Part shown: positions 8,314 to 46,333 of the stretch, in pieces | How the letters are laid out: the number at the start of each line of letters is the position of its first letter | Position numbering within the stretch: the first letter of the stretch is position 1 | Source of the DNA: Candidatus Moraniibacteriota bacterium | Lineage (GTDB): Bacteria; Patescibacteriota; Minisyncoccia; Moranbacterales; UBA1568 | Direction: 5' to 3' | NCBI GenBank assembly: GCA_037201605.1 | Contig: JBBCGM010000002.1 | Coordinates: forward strand, 80,697-144,696 | DNA: 64,000 nt | Position numbers and translations under genes: made by a program | Notes under the pieces: generated by a model | What the model saw: the letters and a program-made list of their open reading frames with translations, nothing else | Database searches by the model: none | Told to the model about the DNA's origin: nothing

Positions 8314-8340
8314 AGAGAGACTTTGCATTCAAGATCTCCT

Positions 8341-8475: not shown

Positions 8476-8485
8476 CGCTTTTTCC

Positions 8486-8827: not shown

Positions 8828-8832
8828 TACCT

Positions 8833-9561: not shown

Positions 9562-9565
9562 ACCT

Positions 9566-10063
9566 ATGTCAGAACAGCAGTCCTCCGAAACCATTCTTAA
9601 AAATCTCGCCGAAGGCTTGATTGCCAAACTCGGTTTCGTTGGCAGCGTTCGGGTATCTCAGAAAGAAGATTCGCTTCCGCCAGTGTGGCAGATTGATATT
9701 ACCCTGCCAGAAGGACAGCATTTCCTGATCGGGCAGCACGGGATGAATCTCGGAGCCCTCCAGCACCTTATAAAGATCCTGGGACGCCGAGCGCTCGCTG
9801 AAGAAGGGACTCTGCTTGTAGATGTCAACAACTACTTTGCCGAAAAACGTTCGTTTCTCGAGCGCGAAGCGTATCAAGCAGCCGAGGAGGCTCTGAAAAC
9901 AGGGTTTGCGGTTACTCTCAAGCCGATGCAGCCTTTCGAGCGCAAGATCGTCCATACGGCACTTGCTTCCAATACGGCGGTAATTACCGAGAGCGTCGGA
10001 AAGGGTGATGAGCGACGGGTCTTGGTGCGTCGTCGGGAGGAAGAGGCAACAGAATCCGAATAA
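9566..10063 (+). CDS. jag: Jag/KhpB-like KH + R3H RNA-binding protein
   Basis: ATG at 9566 (MSEQQSSE...). C-terminus ...PFERKIVHTALASNTAVITESVGKGDERRVLV is an R3H-type motif. Follows yidC. Confidence 0.75.
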   Translation: MSEQQSSETILKNLAEGLIAKLGFVGSVRVSQKEDSLPPVWQIDITLPEGQHFLIGQHGMNLGALQHLIKILGRRALAEEGTLLVDVNNYFAEKRSFLEREAYQAAEEALKTGFAVTLKPMQPFERKIVHTALASNTAVITESVGKGDERRVLVRRREEEATESE

Positions 10064-10096
10064 ATAAAAAGAAGGTCAGATACCTTCGGAATACCT

Positions 10097-11551: not shown

Positions 11552-11562
11552 AAATCGGCCCT

Positions 11563-13195: not shown

Positions 13196-13198
13196 AGT

Positions 13199-16825: not shown

Positions 16826-16849
16826 ACTGATCGCTTACGGAAGAAGTGC

Positions 16850-17947
16850 CTAATTAGCCGGATCCCAGGCGTGAAAGTGCCCAGAGTCCTCATCCCAAAC
16901 CTTATAGCCCCTGTAGGAATATATGGGACGATTCTTACTACTATCAATTTTGGACTGCTTTTGCATGAAAGCAAGCACGGGGTTCCTTCCAATATCTACC
17001 GCCGCTCTTCCGGGACCATGAGTGGCATGACCCGCCTCAGTTCCCCCTGTTACGACTAGGTTACAGCCACATTCTCTTTTAACATCAATAAGCCAAGCTA
17101 TGGTAGAGCTTGGGATGCCATCTAGGCTCGTACAGTTTGTCTGTCCAGAGCTGGAACAATTTGCTTTATTTACACCGATACCATTTTGTTGGAGCTTGGT
17201 TCGTGCGCTGGCATCTGTTTCTACCTGTGCGCCACTGAACTCTTTGGCAGCAAAAGATCCTGAACCTCCGCCAGAAGAACCGCCCCCCCCTCCGTCTGAA
17301 CCCGTACCACCTCCTCCTAAAGAAACGGGACTAAGGGATTGAATCGAAAGGTTGGTCAGATCGGGGTTGATGATGTTGAGAATCAATACCGCTGCAAGCG
17401 CCAGCACCAGCCCGAGGAGGGAATCACGGAGCACTTTTTTGGCACTGGAAACGCTCGAGGTATTGCCCGCACTTGTCAGGTACATGAAGCCTCCGACTGT
17501 AAGCATGAAGATCGCTGAGAGCACGATGAGGACGAGAGCGAGCTGGTAAACGCCTTTGAAATAGGCGCTGAAATCGCCAGTGCTCTCCAAAAAGGGAATA
17601 TTCTCCAGCGGTGTGTAGTTGAGGCCGTTGGCGTAGGAATTTTTGGCGGATAGGCCACTTATTTCATTTGAAGAGGTGGGATTACCATTCTGGTCTATAA
17701 GGCCTTTTTCTTTTGCCTTATCGTCATCAAGACAGCAAAAGCCTCTCGTATCGCCGGCTTCTTCTGATACACACCCTTTTCCAACGAGTGTTTCAGAATC
17801 GTAGCAACCATCTCCCCATAAAATGTTCGTTGGATAGCAAGTAGCCTCAAGGGTTTGACAAGCACTTTTCGTGATGGCCGAAGCTTGCGACGTTGAAAGA
17901 AAAAAAGAAATAGCGCAAAAAACGAGAAAGATTTTTTTATTTTTCAT
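16850..17947 (-). CDS. Secreted Cys-rich / T4SS-pilin-like two-TM module fused via a Gly-rich linker to a putative Zn D,D-peptidase-like domain
   Basis: MKNKKIFLVF signal peptide. YTPLENIPFL...FMLTVGGFMYLTSAGN...LILNIINPDL matches the CPR pilin-like pattern. GGGTGSDGGGGGSSGGGSG linker. C-terminus has THGPGRAAVDI and SGHFHAWD. Confidence 0.5.
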   Translation of the reverse strand: MKNKKIFLVFCAISFFLSTSQASAITKSACQTLEATCYPTNILWGDGCYDSETLVGKGCVSEEAGDTRGFCCLDDDKAKEKGLIDQNGNPTSSNEISGLSAKNSYANGLNYTPLENIPFLESTGDFSAYFKGVYQLALVLIVLSAIFMLTVGGFMYLTSAGNTSSVSSAKKVLRDSLLGLVLALAAVLILNIINPDLTNLSIQSLSPVSLGGGGTGSDGGGGGSSGGGSGSFAAKEFSGAQVETDASARTKLQQNGIGVNKANCSSSGQTNCTSLDGIPSSTIAWLIDVKRECGCNLVVTGGTEAGHATHGPGRAAVDIGRNPVLAFMQKQSKIDSSKNRPIYSYRGYKVWDEDSGHFHAWDPAN

Positions 17948-18029
17948 ATTCGTGAAAATCACCAACAGTATACCATGAAAAAGCGCCTCCAAAAGAGGCG
18001 CTTCAGGAATTCGGAAAGGTAAGAATTTT

Positions 18030-24460: not shown

Positions 24461-24544
24461 GCCCAGGTGGCGGAATTGGTATACGCGCTAGCTTGAGGTG
24501 CTAGTTCCCGCAAGGGATTGGAGGTTCGAGTCCTCTCTTGGGCA
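24461..24544 (+). tRNA. tRNA-Leu (anticodon GAG)
   Basis: Acceptor GCCCAGG/CTTGGGC, anticodon arm CTAGC-TTGAGGT-GCTAG, long variable arm, T-loop GGTTCGAGTCC. Confidence 0.85.
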
Positions 24545-24560
24545 CACACAGAAGTACATT

Positions 24561-24634
24561 GCACGCTTAGCTCAGTTGGTTAGAGCATCTCGTTTACACC
24601 GAGAGGGTCCAAGGTTCGAGTCCTTGAGCGTGCA
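24561..24634 (+). tRNA. tRNA-Val (anticodon TAC)
   Basis: Acceptor GCACGCT/AGCGTGC, anticodon arm TCTCG-TTTACAC-CGAGA, T-loop GGTTCGAGTCC. Confidence 0.9.
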
Positions 24635-24646
24635 CAGGTCCCTTTC

Positions 24647-24721
<75 letters not shown>

Positions 24722-24796
24722 GCGACAGGTTAAAAAGAGTGTCTAAGTGGTGTATAAGTGGTTTATACCCCTAATATCCACTAAAATAGGGCTACA

Positions 24797-25024
24797 GGGA
24801 CTGTATCCGCCAGCTGGCGGAGGTAAGAGCAGGCGGCTCATAACCGCTTGGTCGTTGGCCCGCCCCGTGCCAAAATTGACATCATAGATTTAGGGTCCGT
24901 AGCTCAGCGGTAAGAGCAGGCGGCTCATAACCGCTTGGTCGTTGGTTCGAATCCAACCGGACCCACTGACAGGACGGTTAGGTAATGTCAATTTTGGTAC
25001 GGGGTGAAAATCCAACCAGTCCCA
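24797..25024 (+). other. tRNA-like outer shell (anticodon CAT) split at its T-loop position by a 146-nt hairpin-ended insert carrying a complete tRNA(CAT)
   Basis: The 5' part (24797-24858) and 3' part (25005-25024) give acceptor GGGACTG/CAGTCCC and T stem GTTGG/CCAAC. A 35-nt stretch spanning the 3' part of the D arm, the anticodon arm, the variable region and the 5' strand of the T stem is identical to the inner tRNA. The insert is bounded by inverted repeats 24863-24882 and 24985-25004. Confidence 0.6.
24893..24965 (+). tRNA. tRNA with anticodon CAT (elongator Met or Ile2; not an initiator type)
   Basis: GGGTCCG/CGGACCC acceptor, D arm GCTC-AGCGGTAA-GAGC, anticodon arm GGCGG-CTCATAA-CCGCT, T arm GTTGG-TTCGAAT-CCAAC. 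G1-C72 is paired. Confidence 0.9.
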
Positions 25025-25037
25025 CTGTCAGTAGAAA

Positions 25038-25108
25038 GCGGCTATCGTATACTGGTATTATACTACCTTGCCAAGGTAGGGAAACGGGTTCGATTCCCGT
25101 TAGCCGCT
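25038..25108 (+). tRNA. tRNA-Gly (anticodon GCC)
   Basis: Acceptor GCGGCTA/TAGCCGC, anticodon arm CTACC-TTGCCAA-GGTAG, T arm ACGGG-TTCGATT-CCCGT. The D-arm parse is less certain. Confidence 0.75.
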
Positions 25109-30190: not shown

Positions 30191-30262
30191 GGTCGTGTGG
30201 CCGAGTGGTTAGGCACGGGTCTGCAAAACCCTTTACCCCCGGTTCAATTCCGGGCACGACCT
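30191..30262 (+). tRNA. tRNA-Cys (anticodon GCA)
   Basis: Acceptor GGTCGTG/CACGACC, anticodon loop CTGCAAA, T arm CCCGG-TTCAATT-CCGGG. Confidence 0.9.
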
Positions 30263-30269
30263 CAGAAAT

Positions 30270-30352
30270 GCCGTGGTGGCGGAATGGTATACGCAGCGGA
30301 CTTAAAATCCGCGGGCCGCAAGGCCATGAGAGTTCGAGTCTCTCCCGCGGCA
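30270..30352 (+). tRNA. tRNA-Leu (anticodon TAA)
   Basis: Acceptor GCCGTGG/CCGCGGC, anticodon arm GCGGA-CTTAAAA-TCCGC, long variable arm, T-loop AGTTCGAGTCT. Confidence 0.9.
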
Positions 30353-31494: not shown

Positions 31495-32080
31495 CTAAGA
31501 GTCTTCTTTTAATTTCTCAATCACCTTCGGGACCTTTTTAAAATCTTTGATCAAAGTTTCGCGCATCGAGCCGTTGTAGAGCGCGGCGGCCGGATGATAG
31601 AGCGCGAAAAAAACAAGCGTTCCCAAGCCGGGGATGTCACGCCGGAACGCTTGGCCATGCACCTCGGAAATCTTTTTGCCCGGAACGAAATGTTCGAGGG
31701 CGTGGCGGGCCGAGCGTTACGATCACTTTCGGCTCAATCACTTTGATCTGTTCGTGCAGCCAGGTTTCGCAGGCAGCGACTTCTTCGGGTAGCGGATCGC
31801 GATTATCAGGCGGACGGTATTTGACGACGTTCGTGATGTAGACATCTTCGCGTTTCAGGCCGGTGCTTGCGAGCATTTCATTTAAGAATTTTCCGGCAGC
31901 TCCTACGAACGGCTTGCCCTGCAGATCTTCGTTCTTGCCGGGCGCTTCGCCGATAAAGAGAATGTCGGCATCAGGATTGCCATCCCCCGGCACCGGCTGT
32001 GTCGCCGTGTCTTTTAGTGCGCAGTCGCAGCTGGCAGCCTGCAGAATATTGACGGCATCGAGCGTTTGCTTTTTGTCCAT
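31495..32080 (-). CDS. Uracil-DNA glycosylase family 4 (one frame break near 31700)
   Basis: ILFIGEAPGKNEDLQGKPFVGAAGKFL motif. The C-terminal part (...HALEHFVPGKKISEVHGQAF...LYHPAAALYN) is in another frame after an extra C in GGCCCGCC. Confidence 0.8.
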
Positions 32081-32082
32081 AA

Positions 32083-33061
32083 TTATACGATAGCAAATCC
32101 GTACTCCGTCTCGCGGATGCGGCCGGGGAGTTCGAAGCCGCTCGCCAGACGATGGCCTCCCCCGCCGAATCGGTGGGCGATAGCCGACACATCTACCTGG
32201 TGCTGTTCCATGGTCCTCAGGCTCGCGCGTACCGTATCGTCATCACGCTCCGAGAGCACGAGGGCGAAGCGAGCGTCGGGCACGGTCGAGAGAATGGAGG
32301 CGACTTGGTAAATGTCTTCTGGGCGCGCGTGGCAGAGTGCAAGGTCTTCCTGGGTAACGGCCGTTACCAGCATGCCGTTTTCTGGGTAGAGGCGCGCCCG
32401 TTCCAGCGCCTTCCCCCACAGGCGCAGCGCCGCGATGTCTTGGTGCGCGTAGATGAGCTGTGAAACTTTCGCAAGCGGCGCCCCGCTCTTCATGAGGGCG
32501 GCCGTGATTTCCATAACACGAGGTGAAACGCTGGCATGCTGCAGGTTGCCAGTGTCGAACAAAATGCCGGCAAGCAAAGCGCTGGCGGCTTTTTTGGTCA
32601 GGCGCGCTTCCACCGACATGAGAAAGAGATAGACCAGTTCGCAGGTCGAAGAATATTTGGGATCGATCATTACGATATCGCCGGAGACGCTGATATCAGG
32701 ATGATGATCCATGAGCACTACCACCGTTTTTTTCCGATACGCGCTCGCGAATCAGATGAAACCCGCGATCTACGCTATCGAGTGCGATGACGGCGTCATA
32801 GGCGCCGAGATCCACATTGTCCGGATGCGTAAAATGCTCTTTGGAAAGCGCAGAGAGACTTTCAGGAAAAGCGTCAAAGCAAGCGATAGTCGCTTCTTTA
32901 CCCAGCCCCAGGATGTATTCTTGCATTGCGAGATTAGCACCGACGGTATCAGCGTCGGGTCTGGTGTGAGCGAAAAGCAAAATACGTTCTGCGGTGCTTA
33001 TGACGTAGTCGAGCTGACGGAATTCTTGGTGAAAATCTTGCATAGCGGAATTAAACGTCAC
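32083..33061 (-). CDS. DHH/DHHA1 phosphoesterase (NrnA-like), one frame break near 32710
   Basis: N-terminal ORF 32696..33061 has HTRPDADTVGA (DHH context). C-terminal ORF 32083..32724 has DPKYSSTCELV and GGGHRLASG (DHHA1 GGGH). Confidence 0.8.
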
Positions 33062-33401
33062 TCCCCTCCTCTTTCAGGGAGATGAGTATTTTTTCAATGA
33101 CATCGTTTTTCTGGGCGGTTTTGTCGATGAAAAAACGAAGTCTCGGTAGCGGCTTCATCGAAAGTTTTCCATGTACGAAGTGCTCGAGCGTCACCCTCTC
33201 TTTGGCAAGCGTTTTGAGCGCGTAGGCCTCGTCGCTTTCCGGAAAAGCACTTACATAGACGCGTGCCTGACGCAGGTCACGCGAGACCTCGGCGCGTACG
33301 ACCGTCAGAAGGAGCCCTTCTTTGAGCGTCAGCGTCGTAGAAATAGCCTGGGCTACCAGATCACGGATCAGTTCGTTTACCTTGATAATGCGTTCGGACA
33401 T
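33051..33401 (-). CDS. rbfA: Ribosome-binding factor A
   Basis: MSERIIKVNELIRDLVAQAIS...LTVVRAEVSRDLRQARVYVS pattern. Confidence 0.85.
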   Translation of the reverse strand: MSERIIKVNELIRDLVAQAISTTLTLKEGLLLTVVRAEVSRDLRQARVYVSAFPESDEAYALKTLAKERVTLEHFVHGKLSMKPLPRLRFFIDKTAQKNDVIEKILISLKEEGSDV

Positions 33402-33417
33402 CTTGCGAAGTTAATAG

Positions 33418-33489
33418 TGCCCTCGGCAGGAATCGAACCTACAGCTTTCCCTTAGGACGGGATTGTTTTATCCATTAAACTACGAAGGC
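33418..33489 (-). tRNA. tRNA-Arg (anticodon CCT)
   Basis: The reverse complement gives acceptor GCCTTCG/CGAGGGC, D arm GTTT-AATGGATA-AAAC, anticodon loop GTCCTAA and T-loop GGTTCGATTCC. Confidence 0.75.
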
Positions 33490-33508
33490 CAGCGAAGTTT
33501 CTAAACAG

Positions 33509-33581
33509 TGGACCCAGCCGGACTCGAACCGGCGACCTCCTCCATGCCATGGAGGCGCGCTACCAGCTGTGCTATGGGCCC
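33509..33581 (-). tRNA. tRNA-Ala (anticodon GGC)
   Basis: The reverse complement gives acceptor GGGCCCA/TGGGTCC with the G3:U70 pair, anticodon arm CCTCC-ATGGCAT-GGAGG and T arm GCCGG-TTCGAGT-CCGGC. Confidence 0.9.
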
Positions 33582-33709
33582 CAGTGTCGCAAACATCTCA
33601 CTATCATACGGCAAAGAGCGAATCTGTCAATCAGAAAAAGAGCATCCGCTCCCCTTTTCCCTAAAGCCGATCAAGCCTATAATAAAGGGATTTCTCTTTA
33701 ATTATAGGT

Positions 33710-35254
33710 ATGTTCAGGAAAGTCCCGCTACTTTTTTCTCAGCTCTCTTCAAGCGCTTTTTGGGAAAAGGTTTTTTTGGCAGGCCTTATCTTAACCGCCT
33801 TTCTTTCTATCCGGAAGACAATCGCTACCATCGCTCCCCTTCCGGGAGCTTCTTTCAATGAATATGCTGATATTTCTCTATATGCTTTTGATGTCTTTTT
33901 CATACTGTGGGCCTCCTGTTTTATATTAAGAAACAAAATATTAATATTGTCAATATTAAGATCTCTCTATAAGCAGAAATCACAAATGTTCCACGTGGAA
34001 CATTTTCCTCTATCAGCTCTTATCATAGTCTTCTTTCTCTCTACTCTCTTCTCAAAATACCCAATCCTGAGTTTCTATACATTGCATTTTTGGCTGCAGG
34101 GCATATTTCTATTTACAGCCCTCCTAATTTATCCAATGTTCCACGTGGAACATTTGAAAAACTCATCAAAAAATGTTCCACGTGGAACATTTGAAAAACT
34201 CATCAAAAAATGTTCCACGTGGAACATTTTACAGTTAACATGGTCAATTATCCTTATATTAAGCCTTTTTGACCTCATTCTCACTTTCTGGCAACCTTTT
34301 AGCGGCTCCTCTCTAGGACTATGGTGGCTGGGGGAGCCAAGCCTAAAATTAGGTAATCCGGCAGTAGCCAAAGTATTCCTCTTTGGAGAGCCTATTTTAC
34401 GCGGTTATGGATTTTTTCTTCATCCAAATATAAATGCTCTTTTTCTCCTTTGCGTAATTTGGATTCTCATAAATGTTCCACGTGGAACATTCTGAACATT
34501 CAAACACCCAATGTTCCACGTGGAACACGGGTCTAACTTCAAAAAAAGCCTTTTTACTAGCCACCCTCTGTGCTTTTGGATTCTTGCTGACCTTTTCAAA
34601 AGGGGCTTTTTTACTTGCAATAGGGCTTTTTCTCTATAAAATGTTCCACGTGGAACATCCAGGTCGTTTAAAAAGCTTTTATACGATGTTCCACGTGGAA
34701 CATGTGAAGTTTCTGATACCCATAATTTTGTGGATAACCATTGTATTCTTTGCTTTATACACGCTTTTGCACAACTCTCAGTCTCTCTCAGAGCGTGAAA
34801 ATCTTCTTTTTCTGTTCTCTGAAGGTTGGAGTCCGAGTTTATGGGGGTCTGGGTTAGGGACTACGGTAGTTGAAAACATTGATAGGGGATTGGTAAATCC
34901 AGACTGGTTCTTGCAGCCAGTACATAATGTATATCTCATTGCCTTAGGAGAAACAGGCCTTCTAGGGCTATTAGCATGGACTTTCACTCTTTTTAAACAC
35001 TTTTTGGAGCCATGTTCCACGTGGAACATCTGCGGAAATTGTACAAGGATGTTCCACGTGGAACACTAAATAGTAATGATGGGGTCAAAAAATGTTCCAC
35101 GTGGAACATTTACGGAGGATTACTCTTTATCTTTGTCGGCAGTATGTTTTTCGATCATTTTTTATGGGACATACCCAGCGGATTATGGATGTTCTGGATT
35201 TTTCTCGGATTGGCTTATCCTAGTCATCTAGTATATATTGACAAAATTAAATAA
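33710..35254 (+). CDS. Third O-antigen-ligase/Wzy-like membrane protein, carrying 11 embedded parS-type palindromes (two frame breaks)
   Basis: Three consecutive ORFs (33710..34495, 34473..35069, 35012..35254). Wzy_C-like motifs LLTFSKGAFLLAIG and PVHNVYLIALGETGLLGLL. MFHVEH, CSTWN and VPRGT hexapeptides mark the palindromes. Confidence 0.6.
33986..35109. repeat. Array of 11 parS-type palindromes (16-bp core TGTTCCACGTGGAACA; 18-bp ATGTTCCACGTGGAACAT)
   Basis: 18-mer starts: 33986, 34136, 34173, 34210, 34473, 34511, 34641, 34686, 35012, 35049, 35092. The 16-bp core is perfect in all 11. In the copies at 34511 and 35049 the 18th base is C. The copies fall into five clusters with intra-cluster spacing of 37-45 bp. 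Confidence 0.9.
34136..34227. repeat. 37-bp tandem repeat, about 2.5 units, each containing one parS-type palindrome
   Basis: ATGTTCCACGTGGAACATTTGAAAAACTCATCAAAAA is repeated identically at 34136 and 34173, with a third partial unit from 34210. Confidence 0.9.
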
Positions 35255-35265
35255 AATTGTATAAT
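35238..35265 (+). promoter_or_regulatory. Sigma70-like promoter
   Basis: TTGACA (35238-35243), 16-nt spacer, TATAAT (35260-35265). Confidence 0.5.
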
Positions 35266-35464
35266 ATATTCTTTAGAAAAAGATTGGCAAAGGATCTTAT
35301 TGCAAGACTTTACTGCGAATTTCTAAGAAGATTTCTAGGAGTTTACTCTTAAAAATACTTCTAAAAAACGATGCTCTCTGTAAAGAGATTTCTCTCAAAT
35401 ACCTCTTTCTTTTTCGCTCTAAAAACTGATATACTGACGAAGCAATACAAACATCTCAAAACTT

Positions 35465-36463
35465 TTGATCATGCGTGCTTTCGGTTTGTCGAACAATAGC
35501 GAACAGAGCGCTTCTTTTAAATTCGTGTTTCCTGTTTTCGTTGCGCTTTTTTTGGCAAGTGCTTTTTTCTTGGCGCGTGCCGCTGAGCAAAGCCCGAGTA
35601 ATTCTTCTGTTTTTCTTGATAGCGATCAGGACAATCTGACTGATGACGAAGAAGCACTGTACGGAACTGACCCCCGGAAAAAAAGATACTGACGGCGATA
35701 GCTATTCGGACAGCGTGGAAATCCAGAGCGGTTTTGATCCTCTCAAACCCGCACCTGGGGATCGTATCGCGCCGGTGACAGATGTTGAGGCGCCGGTTCA
35801 GAACGGAACTTCTCAAGAGAATCTCACCAACAAAGCTTCCGATCAGATAGCTTCTCTTTTGAAGAACGCCGAGCAGGGAGAGAGCGTGAATATGGAGGAT
35901 ATTACGCAGGCCGTACAGGGAGCTCTTTCTCAGAATACGGAAGTGACTCTTCCGGAAATTGATATTTCCAAGATCAAAATTAAGAAAGCGCCCTCGACAA
36001 ACTCTCTGACGAAAAACGCGAAGCCCAGGAAAAAAAGGACGTGACGGAATACCTCACCGTGATCGCCTACTTGTTTGCCAATAATGCGCCACAGTCTTTT
36101 ACGAATGAAGACGAGTTCGGAGCGATGCTCGGCGCATTAGCGCAGCAGGGGACGCTTTCGCTTACCAGCGGCAACAGCGCATACTTGGATGCGCTGGCTG
36201 AAAAGGGGAAGAACATTACTGACGGCGCACTCGATATCGAAGTGCCCGAACAGATGCTCTCGGTGCATGTCAAAGCGCTCCAGTTGGCAGCCTACGCCCA
36301 AACTCTCAAGGATGAATTACGGCCAGGAGAGGCTGACCCTTTGGGCCAGATCGCGACACTTTCCAAAGTCCAAGGCTTTCTCAATGTCATGAGTTCTTTT
36401 ATGGATGAAGTGCATGCGCGCATGGGCGATTACGGCATCGAAGAAATTCCGCTCGACATCTAG
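35465..36463 (+). CDS. Secreted protein with thrombospondin-type-3-like Ca-binding repeats (at least 2 frame breaks)
   Basis: Signal/TM helix. DSDQDNLTDDEEALYGTDPRKKDTDGDSYSDSVEIQSGFDP is only readable across the A7 run at 35678-35684. A second break lies near 35985-36045. Confidence 0.55.
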
Positions 36464-36466
36464 CCT

Positions 36467-37533
36467 ATGAAACTTTTTTCTCTCCGAACAAAAAACGTTT
36501 TCGAGCCGCGGCCCTCATGCTCGTGCTTTTCGCATCGCTCGTTTCCGCACCGGCTGCCCATGCCAGCGCCTGGGGAGAAGCTTTGGCAGCTGCACTTATG
36601 AAGCAAGCGCTGGAAAATATTCAGAGACAGATAGAGTCAGCCGTCCTCGGGACGCTCAAAGTGGCGGCCGTCCAAGTATTGAACAGTCAGGTAGCGCAGT
36701 CTGGGTCGGCGGCAATAGCGTTGGCCAGAGTCTGGTGATTAGTGATTTTCATCAGTTCCTCACCACCGTGCCGGAGCAGCAAGCCAAGCTTATTATCAAA
36801 GATGCTTTTGCCAACGGAGTGCTCCAAGGCAAGGCATCTTCTTCTAACTATCTGCCGGCCACTCAAAAAATTAGCATCGAGGAAAATTATGCAACCATCC
36901 TGAACAGCACGGTGAAGGCTTCGATAGACGCCGAGCTGCCCGCGCTACGATGCCGATGAGTGCGCAGGCGGCCGCGATCCGGGCCAGGTTCTCGCTACCC
37001 TCTGGTGACTTCAAGGTTTTGAACTGCGTTACCCTAAACAAGGCCAATAATCCGTTAGGCATCCAGATTCTTGCCCAAGAAGCCCAGGCTGCAAAAACCA
37101 GCCAACTCAGTAAAGAGCAGGAAGTACTCGCGCAGTCATCCGGTTTCAAGCCGAGCATGAAAGACGGCAAGATCGTGGCTCCGGCAGGCTCCATCGAAGA
37201 ATTAGTCACGAGTGTTAATAGCCTGGGTCAGAATCTCATCACGGGCTGCCAATAATCCGGGAGAGCTTCTGAGCGGGGGTAGTGATCGGACTGGTCAATA
37301 GGACGGTCAATAGCCTGGTCCAGCAGGGTGTCGGCAAAGTGCAGTCTTCTATTGAGCGCGAGATACGTTCGGTAGACAATGCCGTATCTGGCCAGATTCG
37401 GAGCGTGACCGGCCAGCAAGGCATCGGGGGCGTCGTCAGACAAGCCAACCGAGAGTTCGAGCAGCGCACGAATGTCAATCAGAATACTGAGAATCCGCCT
37501 CTGCCGCCGGCTTTCGACGATGGCATTTACTAA
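36467..37533 (+). CDS. Hypothetical secreted protein (at least 4 frame breaks)
   Basis: MKLFSLRTK.. start and signal peptide ...LFASLVSAPAAHASA. Consecutive ORFs 36517..36738, 36735..36959, 36950..37255 and 37282..37533 abut each other in different frames. Confidence 0.45.
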
Positions 37534-37548
37534 CATCTGGCATCAAAA

Positions 37549-37575
37549 AACTCCCGAGTCCGGGAGTTTTTCTTT
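37549..37575 (+). terminator. Intrinsic terminator
   Basis: CTCCCG-agtc-CGGGAG followed by TTTTTCTTTT. Confidence 0.6.
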
Positions 37576-37604
37576 TCTCAAAAAGATCTTTTTGAGGGCG
37601 GGTG

Positions 37605-37678
37605 TGGGTGATACTGGACTCGAACCAGTGACCTCTACAATGTCAATGTAGCGCTCTAACCACCTGAGCTAATCACCC
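37605..37678 (-). tRNA. tRNA-Val (anticodon GAC)
   Basis: The reverse complement gives GGGTGAT/ATCACCC acceptor, anticodon arm CTACA-TTGACAT-TGTAG and T arm ACTGG-TTCGAGT-CCAGT. Confidence 0.9.
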
Positions 37679-37726
37679 GAGAGCGAACTGGGAAAGCATA
37701 GCGTTCCCAGATTCCTTTGTAAAGAC

Positions 37727-39561
37727 TTAGGCTACCGCTCCGGCTTTTTGCCCGACGATCAGATCGAACTCTTCTTTTTCAAGCGTTTCTTTTTCAAGAA
37801 GCGTCTTGGCGAGCCTATTAAGTACTTCGCGTTTTTCATTCAGGATTTCCGTCGCTTTCCTTGAAAGCATCGTCAATGAGTCGCGACACTTCGCGGTCAA
37901 TGCTCTCGGCAGTCGTTTCGGAATAGTTGCGTTCCTCGTGCATCTCGCGGCCCAAGAAGACCATTTCTTCCTTTTTGCCAAAGGTGCGCGCCCCCAGTCC
38001 GCTCATGCCGTAGCGCGTCACCATGTTGCGTGCCATTTGGGTGGCGCGCTCCAGATCGTTTGAGGGACCGGTAGTAATGTCGCCAAAGACGAGCTTTTTC
38101 TGAAGCGTAGCCGCCGAGCAGCACGGCCAGTTCATCGTAGAATTAGATTGCGGGAATGGAGCGTCTTGTCTTCCTCCGGTACGGCCATAGTGTAGCCTCC
38201 GGCATGCCCGCGTGAAATGATCGAGATCTTGTGGACCGGATCAGCATGTTCGAGACTGGCGCCGACGAGCGCGTGCCCGCCTTCGTGATAGGCAACGATC
38301 TCTCGTTCTTTAGCATTAATGGCGCGATTGCGGCGTTCGGGACCGAGGAGTACCTTTTCGATCGACTCAGCGAGATCTGCCATTTCGATTTCCTTCTTGT
38401 CACGGGCGCGTGGCAAGAATAGCTCCTTCGTTGAGCAGGTTGGCGAGGTCCGCGCCGAGAAGCCTGGCGTGCGGGCCGCGATACGGCGCAGGTCAACATT
38501 TTTCGCCAGGGGCTTGTTCTTGGTGTGGATCTTGAGGATCTTCTCTCGGTCGTTAATGTCGGGCAGGTCGAGCGTGACGCGCCGATCAAAACGTCCGGGA
38601 CGCAGAAGTGCCGGGTCGAGTACGTCCGGCCGGTTGGTAGCAGCGATCACGATTACGTGCGTGTTGGTTTCAAAGCCGTCCATCTCGACCAGGATCTGGT
38701 TCAGGGTCTGCTCGCGTTCATCGTGTCCGCCGCCCAGTCCTGCACCGCGGTGCCTTCCGACGGCATCGATTTCGTCAATAAAGACAATCGAAGGCGCGTT
38801 TTTCTTGGCTTGTTTGAAGAGGTCTCGCACGCGGCTTGCTCCTACGCCGACGAACATCTCGACGAATTCTGATCCGCTGATATTGAAGAAGGGAACGCCC
38901 GCTTCACCCGCTACCGCTTTGGCCATAAGAGTCTTGCCGGTGCCGGGCGAACCGAGCATGAGTACGCCCTTAGGAATTTTGGCGCCCATCAAGAGGAACT
39001 TCTTCGGCTCTTTCAAAAGTCCACTACTTCTTCGAGTTCCAGTTTGGCTTCTTCGCTCCCGGCAACATCCTTGAAGGTGATGCGCTTGCGCTTCTCTTTG
39101 GGATCCAGAATGCGAGCCCGGCTCAAACCGAAGGAGAGCGCCTGGGCATTGCCACGGCTCGCTTGGCGGAACATGAACCACAGGAAGACAGAGATGATGA
39201 GGACCGGCAGGAGGAAAGGAAGAAGGGTTGCGAACCAGAAAGCGGCGCCCGAGGGTTCTTTGACCGTGATGGCGACTGCGGCGAGCTTGTCTTTCTCTGT
39301 TCCGTAATTGGCAAGCGTTTCCGTAAGGGAAGCCTCGTTTTCTTTGCTTGCTTTGGCGGTCACGCCGTCATTTTTGGTGATGGTGAGGGCATTTCCCTCT
39401 ACCACGATGCTTTGTACCTGGCCCTGATTGATCTGAGAAACGAGTTCTGACAGAGAAATATTTTCAGGTTTCTTCTCGGGTACCTGGTAGAGCAGGGCAA
39501 TACCGGCACAGAGGAAGAGGACGAGAATCCAAGGAGAGAGGTTTTTGGTCGTTTTTTGCAT
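37727..39561 (-). CDS. ftsH: ATP-dependent zinc metalloprotease FtsH (about 5 frame breaks)
   Basis: Pieces 39013..39582, 38132..39181, 37836..38135 and 37727..37981 carry Walker A GSPGTGKT, Walker [33 protein letters not shown] and Zn motif HEGGHA. One junction is DF|LKEPKKF at the T4 run (A4 on + strand, 39015-39018). Confidence 0.9.
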
Positions 39562-39578
39562 AAAATAAGAGAGGAAAA

Positions 39579-40513
39579 TCACGTTTTGAGCAGTCTCACT
39601 TTATCACCTTTCTGTTCCAATAACAACCCGAAAAAGGCGACTTTCCGGTTTTTCGCCTTCACTCTCCGATAAGGGCTTTTTCCGTCTCGAGCAAAGCGCT
39701 TTTGGGCAGGGCTCGCGGGAGCATCTCTCCCGAGAGCAGGCGCAGAAAAGCCAACCTTTTCGGTTTTCTTGAGCTCCCGGAAGGCTTTTCTGGAAAAAGT
39801 AAGCGCTTCTTTCTCTGAAGAGATGAGCGGCCAGAGGGTCCTTGTATGATGCGTCTGCTCTTCGGCGAGCGTCTCCGCAGTACGAGCGAGCAAGGCAACG
39901 ATACCGGGCTGGTAGTCTTTGGCCAAGAGCGGCAAGAGGTCGTGCCTCAGGCGATTTCTCAGAAAATGGCGGTTGAGATTGCTCTCATCATCGTGAAAGG
40001 GGAGACCGAGGGCTTGTGCCGCTTTCTCAAGTTCGTCTTGGGTCGCGAAGAGAAGAGGTCGGATAACAGAGGCATTTTTCGGCTGCATGCCCGAGAGACC
40101 TGTTCGTCCCGTCCCCGCGCAGCAGGCGCAGGAGAAAAGTCTCCGCCTGATCTTGCTGGTGATGTGCTACGGCAACTGCTGACAACCCTCGCTTTTTCTG
40201 CAGTTTTTCAAAAAACGCATAGCGTCGCTCCCGGAGACGTTTCTTCTAGATTTTGCGTGCCGCGCACGCGCACCTGCAGAACATGGTAGGGGAGGCCGAA
40301 CTTTTGCGCAGTGCTTTGCACCAGGCGCTCGTCACTTTGGCTTGCCTTACCGCGCAGATGGTAATTGACATGCGCTACTTCCAGAAAAAGACTCTCTTTG
40401 GGAGCGACATAGCTGAGGAGTGCCAGAAGCAGCATGCTGTCCCGACCGCCAGAGACAGCTACGAGCAAGCGATCATTTTTTCTGCCAGAGTTCGTGGCGC
40501 TTGGCAAAAGCAC
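39579..40513 (-). CDS. tilS: tRNA(Ile)-lysidine synthase TilS (at least 2 frame breaks)
   Basis: The N-terminal piece has the PP-loop LLVAVSGGRDS. The middle frame reads RYAFFEKL...VAVAHHQQDQAETFLLRLLRG. The C-terminal piece has IRPLL...LPFHDDESN. Confidence 0.85.
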
Positions 40514-40561
40514 GCATTTTTTTTAGCCAGCGTGCGTGCGGGGTAGGGCAGACTTTTCGTA

Positions 40562-41131
40562 CTACCCTTTTTTCGTGAGGAAGTGTTTTTCAATGATGGC
40601 TTGGAGCGCATCGATGCTTTCGTCGAGGGCTCCATCGCGGTTTTGGATGACATAATCGTAGATTGAGATATCGCTGAAATGTTCCTGGGTATATTGCATG
40701 CGGCTTTCAAGGAAGGCGGCATCGGGCTTATCACGCTTTTGGATACGCTGGCGCAGGGTTTCTATATCGGCAGTGATAAGCACAGCTGGTATTTCCGGAA
40801 AAAGTTTTTTGGCTTTGACGACGCCCTGATATTCCATCTTCCAAATGCCCGCTCGGCCGCTCTGTGAAACGCGCTCGAGCTCGGATTGGGTTACTCCGTA
40901 ATCCTGATTATTGTAGGTACGCGCGTGCTCGACGAATTCGCCAAGAGCTACCTTTTCCGCAAAGGTTTCCTGCGAGAGGAAATGGTACGGATGGCCTTCG
41001 CTTTCACCCGGGCGTTTCTCGCGTGTCGTAGTGGTAATGACGCGCTCAATCGGGAGACGCTTCCTCAAGCCTTCGATAACGGAATCTTGGCCGGAGCCCG
41101 AAGGGCCGGAAACGATGAAAAGATTTTGCAT
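40562..41131 (-). CDS. gmk: Guanylate kinase
   Basis: MQNLFIVSGPSGSGQDSV (P-loop), TTTREKRPGESEGHPYHF, EFVEHARTYNNQDYGV. Confidence 0.85.
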   Translation of the reverse strand: MQNLFIVSGPSGSGQDSVIEGLRKRLPIERVITTTTREKRPGESEGHPYHFLSQETFAEKVALGEFVEHARTYNNQDYGVTQSELERVSQSGRAGIWKMEYQGVVKAKKLFPEIPAVLITADIETLRQRIQKRDKPDAAFLESRMQYTQEHFSDISIYDYVIQNRDGALDESIDALQAIIEKHFLTKKG

Positions 41132-41183
41132 CGATGTAGGGATTATGAAAAAACATCCCTGGGGCGCAAGGATGTTTTCTTGT

Positions 41184-42352
41184 TTAGGCTTCTTTGTTCT
41201 CGCCTTCACGCACCGGGAGCAGTCCCTGCGGTGGCTCTTGGGTTCGATCGAGAGAATCTTCCAGGAATAGTCTTCGCCTTCTTTGAAGACTTCTTCAATC
41301 TTGCGGCCCGGGTAGACTTCTTGGAATTCGCTTACGTGTGCCAGTCCATGAATATCTTTGTCGAGGTAGACGAAAGCGCCGAAGTGATTGATTTTGTCGA
41401 CTTTGCCGGATACTACTTGCCCTACCTGGTAACGGGACAGTACCTGCTCCCATGGATCGGCCTTGAGCGCTTTCATGGAAAGCGAGATGCGGGTATCGTC
41501 GATGCCGATGATTTTGGCTTCTACGTGGTCGCCGGTCTTGATCATTTCACGCGGATCATCAATGAGCTGCCATGCCAGTTCGGAAATGTGGACCAGACCC
41601 TCGAGTTTTTCCGTAGGAATTTTTTCGCCTGTCTCGGCCTTAGGTGAGAATTTACGAAGGCTCCGAAATCTACGACGCCGGATACTTCGCCAGAAACCAC
41701 TTCGCCGACTGAGAACTTGCTGATCAGTCCGCGCTCTTTCTCGCTCTGTGCCGCTTTTTCGCTCACGATGAGTTTTTCGGATTCGCGGTCAGCGTCCCAG
41801 AATACGCACAGAGACTTCTTGTCCGATGAGTTTTTTCAGAAGATCTAAGATCTTGTTCTTGTCGCCGTCTTCAACGCGCGGGTAGTGTTCATTGGAAAGC
41901 TGAGAGACGGGGAGGAAGCCGGGGATGCCGTTCTCATTCGATCATCAGGCCGCCCTTGTTGGCTTCAATCACTTTGGTGGTGACGGTTTCTCGGCGAGAA
42001 AGCTTGCCCTCGATGTCTTCCCATGACTTTTCGTAGGAAGCCTCGCGAATAGAAAGCTCGATATAGCCATCCTCATTTTCGTAGCTCATGAGGGTAGCGC
42101 TCACCTCGGCGCCAATCTTAAGGCGTCCTTCCGGACCAAGGCCGTCGCGCATTTCCTTGCCTAAGACGATGCGGTGCCCAAAGGGCCTAGGTCAATGAGG
42201 GCAGAGGCGCCGCCAACATACATGACGGTACCCTGTACGACGTCACCGACCTCGGGAATAGAGACCAAGTGTTCATCCAAGAGCTTTTCCATAGGAGAAA
42301 CAGCCTCCGGAGTGTCGGTCTTGGTCATTTCTGCAGTTTCTTTTGCTGCCAT
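41184..42352 (-). CDS. rpsA: 30S ribosomal protein S1-like multi-S1-domain protein (several frame breaks)
   Basis: S1-domain fragments in ORFs 42161..42352, 41934..42152, 41542..41766 and the 5' part of 40562..41545 (GDVVQGTV, GFLPVSQL.., GQVVSGKVDKINHFGAFV..GLAHVSE). TAA stop at 41184-41186 in the restored frame. Confidence 0.7.
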
Positions 42353-42451
42353 ACGTTATATTGAGAGGGTGGAGGCTGCACCGAGGCCTGCCAGTTACGG
42401 ATAAATAAGGGGTGCCGAAACGAAAAAGGCTTGTTTTAGGGGAATTTTTGA

Positions 42452-42476
42452 TAAAAAAACCCGATTCTTCGGGTTC
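42452..42476 (-). terminator. Intrinsic terminator oriented to the minus strand, about 100 nt upstream of the rpsA start
   Basis: Minus-strand reading AACCCG-aagaat-CGGGTT followed by TTTTTTT (A7 at 42453-42459 on the + strand). Confidence 0.6.
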
Positions 42477-42827
42477 CTTGGGTCCAAGATGACGCACTCA
42501 GACCCTTTTTTAGGGGAGGCGACCTTTTCAAAGAGATTAAAGCATCTCTTTTTCAGTTGGATTACCAATTACTCCGACGCTTGTCTTCGTTCTGTGGGTC
42601 CAGCCTAGCAGGAAAGGGTACATTTGGCAAGAGTCAGATGCATTCCCCGAAGCATCGTTTCTTTTGTGAAAAATGCTCTAAATAAAGCAAAACTTTTGTC
42701 TTTCTGTCTGGACAGGGGTACTTTTGGCGTGCTAAAGTAGAGGAGGTTTAGGTGCCTCACTCTAGGCATTTCTTTGCTTTTTACCCACTCTAAAGGGTCA
42801 AAAAGCCTCAATTTTCTTTTGAGTTTT

Positions 42828-43487
42828 ATGCTGATTCAATACTACGGAGACTACTGCTTTAAAATCACGACCAAGCCAGGCGGCCGTGCTACCGATGATG
42901 TGACTCTTCTAGCTGACCCGTTGCCCAAAGGTGCTGGCCTGCGCAGTCCTCAGGGAGAAGCCGATATCGTTTTGCTGACGCATGGAAACGTTGAAGAAGC
43001 CAAGGAGGGCCTGAAGGGTGCTCCGGCTGTTTTTGACTGTCCGGGAGAATATGCCGCCAAGGGCATTTCGCTTTTGGGCATCGAGTCTTTTGCAGATACT
43101 CGTTCGGGAGAGCTCGCCGGCCCGAATACCGTCTTTGCTTTTGAAACTGAAGACATTCACTGCGCCTTCTTAGGCGCTTTGGGCCATGATCTTTCTCCGG
43201 AAGCTCTCGATCGGCTCGGAACGGTAGACGTCCTTTTTATCCCGATCGGCGAAGAAGGATCGCTCTCCGCCGAGCACGCTGCCGCTCTTGTGAAGAATAT
43301 AGAACCCAACGTCGTTATCCCGATGCACTATGCATTGCCCGGATTGACCTTGCCTGCCGGAAGCGGTAAAAAATTCTTTGAACTTCTGGGGAGTCAGCCC
43401 AGTGAGAAGACGATCAAATGGAATATTAAGAAGAAGGACATCGAAGGCAAGAAAATGGAAATAGTTATGTTTGAGCGCGGCAGCTAA
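42828..43487 (+). CDS. MBL-fold metal-dependent hydrolase (UPF0173-like)
   Basis: MLIQYYGDYCFKITT..., ADIVLLTHGN..., DVLFIPIG... pattern. Start is at an internal ATG of ORF 42774..43487. Confidence 0.55.
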   Translation: MLIQYYGDYCFKITTKPGGRATDDVTLLADPLPKGAGLRSPQGEADIVLLTHGNVEEAKEGLKGAPAVFDCPGEYAAKGISLLGIESFADTRSGELAGPNTVFAFETEDIHCAFLGALGHDLSPEALDRLGTVDVLFIPIGEEGSLSAEHAAALVKNIEPNVVIPMHYALPGLTLPAGSGKKFFELLGSQPSEKTIKWNIKKKDIEGKKMEIVMFERGS

Positions 43488-43502
43488 ACACTTCTTCGGT
43501 AT

Positions 43503-43850
43503 ATGCTAAACAAGCTGGCAGACAAAATCGCGCACATCCAGACTCAGCCGGAGAATGTGCGCATACGCTACCTCGTTATTTGTCTCGGAGTATCCATGCT
43601 TTTCATTGTCAGTATTTGGATACTTACCCTAAAAGAGAATCTGCACAGTATTAGTCAGACGAAGGCCCAGATAGAAGAGCTCAATCCGAAGAGTTCTGAA
43701 GGAGGATCTCTTCAAGACCTGCTCCGTTCCAAAGAGCCTCTCAAGGATGGTTCTGGCGCCAGCTCCCAAAGCTCGCTTCAGGCCGAATTGAAAGGCGGAC
43801 AGAAGAGTGATGCTTCTGGTGAAGCACTCCCGCCCGAACCTCTCCAGTAA
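43503..43850 (+). CDS. Hypothetical single-pass membrane protein
   Basis: 115-aa ORF with one TM helix ([21 protein letters not shown]). No family recognised. Confidence 0.35.
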
Positions 43851-43878
43851 GAATTGTTTCATTCGTATTTTTTCTCCT

Positions 43879-46333
43879 ATGGCACAGGCAAACCAAGAAT
43901 TCCACGACGGCAAAATCGAACCGCGCTCCATCACGGATGAAGTGCGCCAATCGTATCTTGACTATGCCATGAGTGTCATTGTGGCTCGCGCTCTGCCCGA
44001 TGTGCGTGATGGCTTGAAGCCGGTACACCGTCGCATCCTCTATTCCATGTGGTCTTCAGGTTTGCGTTCCACGGCCAAGTTCCGCAAGTCAGCCACCGTC
44101 GTCGGTGAAGTGCTCGGTAAATACCATCCGCATGGCGACTCGGCCGTCTATGACACGATGGTGCGTTTGGCTCAGGACTTCTCGCTTCGCTACCCGCTTG
44201 TTTGGGGACAGGGGAACTTCGGCTCGATGGACGGCGACAGCGCAGCTGCCTACCGCTACACCGAAGCCAAGCTCACCGCTATCGCCGAGGAAATGCTCCT
44301 CGACATCGACAAAGACACCGTGGACTTCGTGCCGAACTTTGACGGCATGCATGAAGAGCCTGTGGTGCTGCCGGCTAAGCTGCCGCAACTCCTTCTCAAT
44401 GGAACAGTCGGTATTGCGGTCGGTATGGCTACCAATATCCCGCCCCATAACCTCGGCGAGCTGACCGATGGCATTGTCCACTTGATTGATCATCCGGAGG
44501 CGACCATTGAGGACCTGATGCAATTCATCAAAGGACCTGATTTTCCAACGGGCGGTATTCTTTATGATCAGAAAGCTGTGCGTGAGGCCTATGCTACCGG
44601 CAAAGGCCCGATTCTGACGCGGGCCAAGGTGGATATTGTCGAGACCAAAGCGGGCATGTTCCAAATCGTTATTTCGGAAATGACCTACGCTACGAACAAG
44701 GCGAACCTAGTGATGAAGATCGCCGAACTGGTGAAGGACGACAAGCTTAAGGGCATCAAGGACTTGCGCGATGAAAGCGACAAGGACGGCGTGCGCGTCG
44801 TCATTGATTTGAAGAAAGAAGCCTTCCCGCAGAAAGTGCTTAATCGTTTGTATACCCTGACCGATCTGCAGAAGAATTTTAACGTCAACATGCTGGCGCT
44901 CGTAGACGGGCGCGATCCGCAGATCCTGAATCTGAAATCCATTCTCGAGCACTACATCGATCATCGCGAGCGCGTCGTGGTACGCCGCACCGAATACGAG
45001 CTCCAGAAAGCGCTCGATCGCGCTCATATCTTGGAAGGTTTGAAAACAGCGCTCGATCATATCGATGCGGTGATTGATACGATCCGCAAGTCTCCGACCA
45101 AAGAGCAGGCCCATGCCAACTTGATGAAGAAGTTCAAGCTCTCGGAGCGCCAGTCGACCGCTATCTTGGAAATGCGTTTGCAGACGCTTGCCGGACTGGA
45201 GCGCCAAAAAATCGAAGACGAACTGAAAGAAAAACTGCTCCTCATCGCCGAACTCGAAGATCTCCTGAAGCATCGCAAGAAAATTCTGGGTCTCGTGAAA
45301 AGCGAGCTCATGGAACTGCGCGATCGTTTCGGCGATGTGCGTCGTACCAAAGTAGTGAAGGGAGGCATTTCGGAATTCAGCCAGGAAGATCTGGTGCCGA
45401 ATGAAGAAGCCATCATCACGCTTTCGGTGGATGGCTACATCAAGCGTATGAACCCGAGCGTCTATCGCGTGCAGAAGCGCGGCGGCAAGGGCGTCATTGG
45501 CGCGACGACCAAAGAAGAAGACAAGATCGCGACGCTTATGACTATTTCGACGCATGACAATATCATGTTCTTCACGAGCACCGGCAAAGTCTTTCAGACC
45601 AAAGGCTACGAAATTCCCGAATCGACGCGTACGGCCCGCGGACAGGCTATCGTCAATTTCCTCCAAACATCGCAGGATGAGAAGATTACGGCTGCCATTT
45701 CTTTCAGCAAGAACGATGAGTACAAGTACCTCATCATGGCAACGCAGAACGGCACCATTAAGAAGTGCAAGCTTTCCGATTTCGAAAATGTCCGCAGGAG
45801 CGGCCTGATTGCGATCAACCTCGACAAGGGCGATACTTTGGGCTGGGTGGATCCCACCACGGGAAGCGACGAAGTCATTCTCACTACTTCATCCGGACAG
45901 GCCATCCGTTTCAAGGAATCAGACGTCCGTCCTATGGGGCGTACGGCAGCTGGTGTGAAGGGTATGAAGCTCCATGCGGAAGATCGCATCGTAGCGATGG
46001 ATGTCCTTCCTAAGGGCGAGAAAGGCCAGCAGCTGCTTATCCTCTCGCAAAACGGCTACGGCAAGCGCTCAGCGCTCAGTGGCTACAAGATCCAGAAGCG
46101 CGGCGGCTCGGGTATCAAGACCATGAAAGTCACCTCAAAAACCGGCCATTTGGTGGGTGCGGGCTATCGCTCGCACGGCTGATGCCGATCATGATCTGAT
46201 CCTCACCTCCGAGAACGGCACTATTATTCGCATCCCGTTCAACTCGGTGCCGGTGCTTGGTCGCGTGACCCAGGGCGTACGGGTGATGAAGCCCTCTCCA
46301 GGGGACTGCGTAGCCGGGTTTACCCTTCTCTAA
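43879..46333 (+). CDS. gyrA: DNA gyrase subunit A (one frame break near 46161)
   Basis: [28 protein letters not shown] (active-site Tyr). The C-terminal beta-pinwheel continues in another frame to TAA at 46331-46333 after an extra G in a GGG run. Confidence 0.95.

Follow-up and report, generated by a model that had tools for sequence, protein, structure and literature searches.

The 64,000-nucleotide stretch of DNA analysed here (hereafter the window) comes from the chromosome of a Candidatus Moraniibacteriota bacterium, a member of the Patescibacteria, and contains eleven perfect copies of a 16-bp palindrome with the sequence of the chromosomal centromere site parS. All eleven lie within a single gene (hereafter the host gene) that encodes a polytopic membrane protein resembling WaaL and the Wzy_C family. 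The 346-kb contig that carries this array also carries dnaA, dnaN, gyrA, ftsH, genes for ribonucleotide reductase and ribosomal protein L19, and tRNA genes. The first parS site is 26.0 kb from dnaA, and the array is therefore origin-proximal.

The palindrome, TGTTCCACGTGGAACA, has exactly 11 matches in the window, each with 0 mismatches, and these span positions 33987-35108 (16-mer starts at 33987, 34137, 34174, 34211, 34474, 34512, 34642, 34687, 35013, 35050 and 35093). A mean of 0.02 matches is expected in the dinucleotide-shuffled window, and the rest of the 64 kb holds zero further matches at ≤2 mismatches, nor any at ≤3. The start-to-start distances (150, 37, 37, 263, 38, 130, 45, 326, 37 and 43 bp) divide the sites into five clusters of 1, 3, 2, 2 and 3 sites, with 37-45 bp inside the clusters and 130-326 bp between them. 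Cluster 2 has two spacers of 21 bp that are identical to each other; identical spacers are absent from the other clusters. The base 5' of the site is A in 11/11 cases and the base 3' of it is T in 9/11, which extends the palindrome to 18 bp. A preliminary description of this DNA had reported eleven mismatch-free copies (its 18-mer starts lie one base before the 16-mer starts given above), five clusters with 37-45 bp spacing inside them, no other full copy in the window and a distance of about 26 kb from dnaA, and on all of these points our measurements agree with it. The half-site that it recorded at 61398-61407 (CCTGTTCCACGTCGC) does exist and is unremarkable.

All 11 sites fit the chromosomal parS consensus TGTTNCACGTGNAACA, and the perfect parS of Pseudomonas aeruginosa is the same 16-mer as TGTTCCACGTGGAACA (PMC4368675), which has been shown to be a ParB site in P. 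aeruginosa, Burkholderiales and Bdellovibrio. Judged by its sequence, the window motif is the canonical chromosomal parS, as had been proposed, and we infer that it would bind ParB because TGTTCCACGTGGAACA is identical to sites for which ParB binding has been proven in other phyla. Across the 698 sites of the window and related loci (described below), the palindrome extends further, to AAAW-TGTTCCACGTGGAACA-WTTT in any reading frame: position -2 is A in 612/698 sites and position +2 is T in 556/698, irrespective of frame. These extended flanks may represent extra ParB contacts or a DNA-shape requirement.

As assembled, the host gene consists of three overlapping open reading frames (ORFs; 33710-34495, 34473-35069 and 35012-35254), and the removal of one A and the addition of one T, each in a homopolymer run (Table 1), produces an uninterrupted ORF of 514 amino acids (aa). 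Five neighbouring genes were compared with their counterparts in an intact relative (L122), namely those for uracil-DNA glycosylase (UDG), a DHH phosphoesterase, a TSP3-repeat protein, a 347-aa conserved protein and FtsH; each of them is distributed over 2-4 frames in the window, with ~30-68% identity kept (mostly 54-68%, the lowest value being that of the 347-aa protein). Split neighbour genes lie at window positions 31504-33043, 35525-37506 and 37748-39561, and the genes for PolA and a type II secretion system (T2SS) ATPase further upstream (L205 1-4454) are also called as fragments. Because all of the neighbour genes compared are split in the same manner, we judge both frameshifts in the host gene to be probable assembly indel errors. 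The window sequence is probably an unpolished long-read assembly, and ORF-based annotation of the contig is therefore unreliable. The alternative, which is independent of every other reading of the array, is that the host gene is a genuine pseudogene in this one genome, a decaying remnant in which the array serves only as DNA. This would account for an ORF split into three frames with stops after each shift, but we regard it as unlikely: both shifts fall in homopolymer runs and one-base corrections restore a full-length conserved protein, the five compared neighbours including FtsH are split likewise, as are polA and the T2SS ATPase gene, and the homologues in other genomes are intact ORFs.

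The corrected product appears to be a real WaaL/Wzy_C-like membrane protein with a WaaL-like fold. It matches the Pfam family Wzy_C (PF04932) with an E-value of 9.5e-4 and 19.4 bits, below the gathering cut-off of 31.7, and this sub-threshold score is probably due to the inserts described below, which break up the domain; for many of its homologues a PF04932 hit is precomputed. The protein is not represented by any NCBIfam model. The AlphaFold 2 model (predicted template modelling score 0.74) has a sole significant Foldseek match in the PDB, WaaL (7tpg_B, probability 1.00), where the TM-score is modest (0.39/0.47). Aligned with 24 homologues, the protein shows invariant residues that include HPN and QPxHN motifs, and a large extracytoplasmic loop contains conserved H/R residues. 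The host gene has a G+C content of ~39-40%, compared with ~50-51% in its flanks. Recent horizontal transfer was considered as an explanation of the low G+C content and ruled out by conserved synteny and by the related loci, where the host gene is AT-richer than its flanks in 19/19 cases (mean 35% vs 42% G+C), even after subtraction of the 16-mers.

The most unusual property of the sites is that they form part of the translated sequence, in each of the three frames, and encode insertions in the loops of a membrane protein that is conserved in its other parts. Depending on the frame, the palindrome is read as MFHVEH, NVPRGT or CSTWN, and 690/698 sites lie in a stop-free frame of ≥200 codons on the strand of the host gene. 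The codon phases of these 690 sites are distributed 168/252/270; as the three phases occur at comparable frequency, it is the DNA that is conserved and not the peptide. In an alignment of 121 family members the parS peptides are confined to five gap-rich regions, which correspond to the five clusters of the window, and the conserved helical blocks contain zero parS peptides. Consistent with this placement, the five inserts are non-helical in the AlphaFold 2 model, with predicted local distance difference test (pLDDT) values below 50. The loops that receive inserts are alternate loops rich in K/R, the remaining loops being neutral or acidic, and by the positive-inside rule the insert loops are predicted to be cytoplasmic. 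The form of the site also fits its coding context. The C/G-symmetrised parS variant used here has no stop codon in six frames, whereas the common variant TGTTTCACGTGAAACA contains TGA, and among 20 sites with A at position 12 none (0/20) is in the frame that would read TGA. Family-wide, only 4/91 neighbouring spacer pairs are still alike. Since the spacers have diverged while the 16-mers were kept, the 16-mers are maintained by selection and do not stem from recent duplication, and on this sequence comparison the parS arrays of Patescibacteria are old. Literature searches returned nothing on the peptide words MFHVEH, NVPRGT and CSTWN.

The same arrangement recurs throughout the protein family. 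A word-indexed protein search with the corrected host protein, which is biased towards shared words, found 276 homologues of 420-716 aa (~30-36% identical) in Patescibacteria, Moranbacteria, Parcubacteria and Minisyncoccota metagenome-assembled genomes (MAGs), and each of the best 120 of these carries 2-18 parS-derived peptides. To this we add a metagenome scan that is independent of parS in that it used only the core motifs [LF]F[PL]HPN[IV][LF][GA] and [FY]NEYx[DG][IV][SY][LIV]Y, and from which the best 80 of 163 relatives were kept after ranking by tblastn against a parS-containing query. All 80 of the loci kept have 3-17 sites in the host gene (≤2 mismatches), with a total of 679 sites (560 perfect) in 166 kb of gene vs 11 loose matches in 688 kb of flanks, although the host proteins of these related loci are only ~30% identical. 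Dereplication leaves 67 distinct arrays, which together have 548 sites, with a median of 7 per gene (range 2-17) and a median span of 1130 bp. Furthermore, a profile search of 1.84 billion representative proteins retrieved 1921 relatives at E≤1e-30 (representatives of clusters at 50% identity); among the best 150 of these are 118 new representatives, of which 114 have at least one parS peptide and 96 at least three, the maximum being 19. The preliminary description had asked whether the motif is confined to this locus, and in the gene and flanks counted it is; in the present genome, too, none is found elsewhere in the window or in 8.8 kb upstream of it.

Seven of the 11 flank matches are one recurrent 2-mismatch sequence. 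This degenerate parS-like TGTTCCACATGGAATA was located in the flanks at L152 16443, L157 10969, L167 5347, L168 11102, L187 14142, L190 18521, L196 3476 and L204 16458, and a related 3-mismatch variant lies inside the conserved gyrA at L124 13924. We take it to be probably a coding coincidence, though it lies only a few kb from the array.

Table 1. Coordinates of the parS clusters, the host gene and the surrounding blocks in the window
Feature	Position	Strand	Description
parS cluster 1, 1 site	33987-34002		Read as MFHVEH; loop between transmembrane helices (TM) 2 and 3 (TM2-TM3); pLDDT<50 at residues 89-99
parS cluster 2, 3 sites, 37-bp period	34137-34226		MFHVEH / NVPRGT / CSTWN; loop TM4-TM5; pLDDT<50 at residues 143-171
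parS cluster 3, 2 sites 38 bp apart	34474-34527		Loop TM6-TM7
parS cluster 4, 2 sites 45 bp apart	34642-34702		Both MFHVEH; loop TM8-TM9; pLDDT<50 at residues 311-335
parS cluster 5, 3 sites, 37 + 43 bp apart	35013-35108		Loop TM10-TM11; pLDDT<50 at residues 447-462
WaaL/Wzy_C-like polytopic membrane-protein gene	33710-35254	+	Hosts all 11 sites; 514-aa ORF once two homopolymer bases are corrected
First frame change	34471-34473	+	A3 run; deleting one A restores the frame
Second frame change	35001-35005	+	T5 run; adding one T restores the frame
Conserved synteny block around the array gene	31504-46182		Same order in L122, L123 and L124
Origin marker block	5329-10063		dnaN 5329-6477 (-), dnaA 6738-8024 (-), rnpA-yidC-jag 8432-10063 (+)

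The surroundings of the array gene are conserved as well. In the synteny comparison with relatives that the preliminary description had called for, three of them have the same gene order as the window (Table 1): 5' of the array gene are the genes for UDG, the DHH phosphoesterase, RbfA and two tRNAs, and 3' of it come those for the TSP3-repeat protein, two unknown proteins, a tRNA and FtsH, followed by TilS, S1/Gmk, a metallo-beta-lactamase-fold protein and GyrA. The gyrA gene was found at 29/83 array loci. One of the syntenic relatives, L122, has 17 perfect sites; its gene is called at 10001-11278 and its sites lie at 9651-11088, which places the first six of the 17 sites 5' of the annotated start. 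This start was probably miscalled because each site supplies an internal ATG (A-ATG-TTC). Across Patescibacteria, the array belongs to a single gene family in conserved synteny; it is ancient and has been passed on vertically.

The origin marker block of the window is likewise present in three other relatives (L206-L208), and a gene for a DciA-type helicase loader adjoins dnaN (window region 5043-5477; L205 13885-14178). Ten tRNA genes lie in four groups at 24461-25108, 30191-30352, 33418-33581 and 37605-37678, two of them directly 5' of the array gene. Directly after jag there is a polysaccharide gene cluster, which is also found in L206 and L207, and in the window it includes two tandem Wzy_C paralogues of 419 aa each (13199-15695, +) that are free of parS and are only ~26% identical to the array-bearing protein. 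Genes for proteins resembling pilins of type IV secretion systems (T4SS) are located at window positions 16850-17992, and in L208 a conjugation/T4SS-like cluster (7564-17513) with a VirB4/TraG-type ATPase, TraC-like, PrgI and T4SS-pilin-like genes comes right after jag.

Dense parS arrays are also found in other bacteria. We scanned one genome per species from 185,579 species for triplets of consensus parS sites spaced 15-45 bp and obtained at least 120 loci in many phyla. The matches listed include Collinsella (where one triplet is common to many genomes), Lachnospiraceae, Bacilli, Acidobacteriota, Flavobacteriia, Burkholderiales, Streptomyces, Planctomycetota, Verrucomicrobia and one Parcubacteria genome, and several of the loci from other phyla reach 7-10 sites per 1.2 kb. 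The density of the array is thus in itself not unique to Patescibacteria, and the statement in the preliminary description that chromosomal parS sites are usually single, scattered copies goes too far. The dense arrays from other phyla that were checked mostly have no stop-free stretch of ≥100 codons that covers the sites. One such locus, in an uncultured Bacilli MAG (L041 5384-5894), has nine TGTTTCACGTGAAACA sites with a 55-bp period and related spacers and is sopC-like and non-coding; other dense non-coding arrays are L100, L026, L013 and L059. Among the 120 triplet loci listed, the same 8-kb block has a ParB-like ORF in 72 and a ParA-like ORF in 79. With regard to a prophage or plasmid source of such arrays, a tight parS triplet was present in only 15 of 2.9 million viral contigs of IMG/VR (L209-L223), which may be phage-plasmids or chromosomal fragments placed in the wrong bin and which would use the ParB of their host.

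For ParA and ParB themselves we used tblastn with Bacillus subtilis Spo0J and Soj sequences, a profile of 66 ParBs run against all six-frame fragments of ≥30 aa (E≤10), and Pfam scans of ~40 ORFs. None of these found parA or parB in the window, as the preliminary description had stated from the sequence, and the ParB profile found nothing in ~1 Mb of Patescibacteria DNA. The probes are functional, with 74 ParB-like and 79 ParA-like ORFs detected in the loci from outside the Patescibacteria. A weak tblastn match at 36265-36630 (E 0.16) turned out to be the frameshifted homologue of the TSP3-repeat protein of L122 and was gone in a window-only search.

The spacing of the sites shows a further regularity. 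In the 67 dereplicated Patescibacteria arrays (drawn from the window, L122 and L124-L204) the distances between neighbouring sites ≤60 bp apart avoid multiples of 3, with counts for mod 3 = 0/1/2 of 6/124/68 (198 pairs), whereas in arrays from other phyla, which are mostly non-coding, the counts are 45/53/58 (156 pairs; chi-square p 0.44). The nominal binomial p of 2.5e-26 for this avoidance is overstated, as the loci are related by descent and codon indels that keep the frame leave the mod-3 class unchanged, which is visible in the distance series 31-34-...-52 and 41-50-56-59. Helical phasing was tried as an explanation and rejected: the preferred distances (34, 37, 40/41, 46, 49/50, 52, 56 and 59 bp) do not fit a 10.5-bp series, and the array is phased, as it had been called, only in the sense that multiples of 3 are avoided. 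The bias could go back to a few founding events frozen by the need to keep frame, or it could result from selection on spacing against the in-frame loss of sites. In the latter direction we offer the tentative proposal, which we think rather unlikely, that embedding in a needed gene protects the array by a form of frame-lock. Slippage or recombination between two identical 16-18-mers would delete exactly their centre-to-centre distance; as this distance is almost never a multiple of 3, the loss of a site would frameshift the membrane protein, and deletions between clusters would remove transmembrane helices. Selection at the protein level would in this manner police the integrity of a repetitive centromere in genomes with almost no non-coding DNA. 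A further idea is that co-translational insertion of the 12-helix protein could tether the centromere to the membrane.

Overall, we consider it likely, with a probability of about 80%, that the array is the origin-proximal ParB centromere of the Candidatus Moraniibacteriota chromosome, situated inside a conserved WaaL/Wzy_C-like gene. Loading of CTP-bound ParB dimers at these tightly spaced sites would give rise to a single dense partition complex ~26 kb from dnaA, with a role in origin segregation, in SMC loading or in both. The sites would be accommodated in poorly structured loops, predicted to be cytoplasmic, where extra residues are expected to be tolerated. ParB binding and a function in segregation or SMC loading are what the identity of the sites would predict, and the high-density ParB loading platform suggested in the preliminary description for a reduced genome, here that of a patescibacterium, is retained as the most likely function. 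Its description of the array as a plasmid-style centromere has to be abandoned: the contig carries the chromosomal genes dnaA, dnaN, gyrA and ftsH, the feature is vertically kept across Patescibacteria, no parA-parB operon adjoins it, and it is not a continuous tandem repetition of a single unit. The same in-gene arrangement recurs in hundreds of related Patescibacteria, and the main group of segregation sites detected here is thus part of a protein-coding sequence.

Several observations weigh against a ParB centromere. Neither a ParB nor a ParA gene was found in the window and the 8.8 kb upstream of it, within ±10 kb of 83 related arrays or around dnaA in the three relatives whose origin regions were reached via Jag homologues, the part searched being <~10% of any genome. 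Literature searches turned up nothing on parS or ParB in Patescibacteria. A few family members have 0-2 recognisable sites, which means that the array is not obligatory for the protein. Finally, the ORF in the window is formally broken; if the shifts were real, the host gene would here be a pseudogene and the array would still stand.

An alternative view is that the palindromes are operators for a protein other than ParB, either a regulator of the Wzy-like gene or an anchoring factor that acts independently of ParB in a lineage whose ParABS was lost; the lineage could be without canonical ParB altogether. The lack of parAB near the array or dnaA in the Patescibacteria loci examined, as against 72/120 listed triplet loci from other phyla, agrees with this view, as does the silence of the literature searched on ParB in Patescibacteria. 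We nevertheless hold it to be improbable. The 16-mer is base for base the canonical parS, with 560/679 sites perfect, and convergence on this sequence is unlikely; as many as 17-19 sites across a whole coding region are more than a regulator would need; and the search for ParB covered only the small share of each genome given above.

Still less probable is that a selfish or structural palindrome (of the repetitive extragenic palindromic (REP) or miniature inverted-repeat transposable element (MITE) kind, related to a restriction site, or forming a hairpin) invaded the gene and has no role in segregation. The palindrome is perfect and contains CACGTG, cluster 2 resembles a recent 37-bp tandem duplication and the G+C content of the host gene is below that of its flanks. 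A generic REP-like palindrome, which the preliminary description had named as the case that would refute it, would however be dispersed, and here all copies are in one ORF, with 0 others in 64 kb and ~11 loose matches in the 688 kb of flanks of the 80 loci. Lineages with proteins of ~30% identity agree in the gene, the five loops and the synteny in which the copies are found, the spacers have diverged and the 16-mers have not, and the low G+C content is a trait of the family (19/19 loci). That the repeats are selected as peptide motifs and resemble parS only incidentally can be set aside as scarcely credible: MFHVEH, NVPRGT and CSTWN do recur in every homologue, but they are three unrelated peptides, encoded by one DNA 16-mer in frames that are used with comparable frequency, the A/T palindrome of the flanks is kept whatever the frame, and the AlphaFold 2 model puts the inserts in low-confidence loops.

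The ParB centromere reading would identify a probable centromere for the large and mostly uncultured radiation of the Patescibacteria (Candidate Phyla Radiation, CPR), whose chromosome biology is essentially unstudied, and it provides an easily recognised marker, a gene that can contain as many as 17 perfect parS sites (one database homologue has 19 parS-type peptides). The parS site itself is known. What is new is an entire array that lies only within a single conserved gene and is translated with it, together with the stop-free variant, the rotation through three frames, the separation from parAB and the extent of the family, with ~1900 cluster representatives; the literature that we searched contains no description of an embedded, translated parS array. 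The gene is an extreme natural case of dual coding, in which an array of protein-binding DNA and a protein share bases in three frames, with visible adaptations in the stop-free site, the placement in loops and the out-of-frame spacing. It raises the questions of how ParB clamps and RNA polymerase would share a gene and how repeat arrays remain stable in minimal genomes. More generally, tight parS arrays in bacterial chromosomes are much commoner than the scattered single sites of textbooks would suggest. There are also practical consequences, in that gene callers truncate or split array genes at internal ATGs, and translated parS words can draw unrelated proteins together in word-based searches.

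In comparison with known systems, the host protein shares with WaaL/Wzy_C (PF04932; PDB 7TPG) a polytopic helical architecture and a large extracytoplasmic loop with conserved H/R residues, and it differs from them as a distinct subfamily with five variable, low-complexity inserts that are predicted to be cytoplasmic. The chromosomal ParABS centromeres (reviewed in PMC7022226), among them parS1-4 near oriC of P. aeruginosa (PMC4368675), have the identical 16-bp palindrome and, like the array described here, several origin-proximal sites with an expected role in ParB nucleation. Unlike these, the present array packs 11 sites into 1.1 kb (relatives have as many as 17 per array), all inside one translated ORF, and has no parAB operon nearby.

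Clusters of several chromosomal parS sites are present in Myxococcus xanthus, Corynebacterium glutamicum, Streptomyces and Caulobacter. Such multi-site clusters (PMC7022226) and the dense arrays of other phyla resemble the present array in having many canonical sites near the origin, some at equal density. The dense arrays of other phyla mostly use the TGA-containing TGTTTCACGTGAAACA and have no mod-3 bias, whereas those of Patescibacteria are coding and use the stop-free C/G variant.

The sopC centromere of the F plasmid consists of 12 tandem 43-bp repeats, each with a 16-bp inverted repeat. It shares with the array (sopC is discussed in PMC3597684) identical inverted repeats of short period (37-50 bp) that would load many ParB-type dimers side by side. 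The differences are that the site here is a chromosomal-type parS and not a plasmid-specific one, that the replicon is a chromosome, and that the array is made up of five clusters split by transmembrane-coding segments, with no adjoining partition operon. A single intragenic site is known from B. subtilis, where parS lies inside spo0J. In such cases parS is also contained in coding DNA and translated; those, however, are single sites in assorted genes, whereas here a whole array is carried in the loops of one gene across a radiation.

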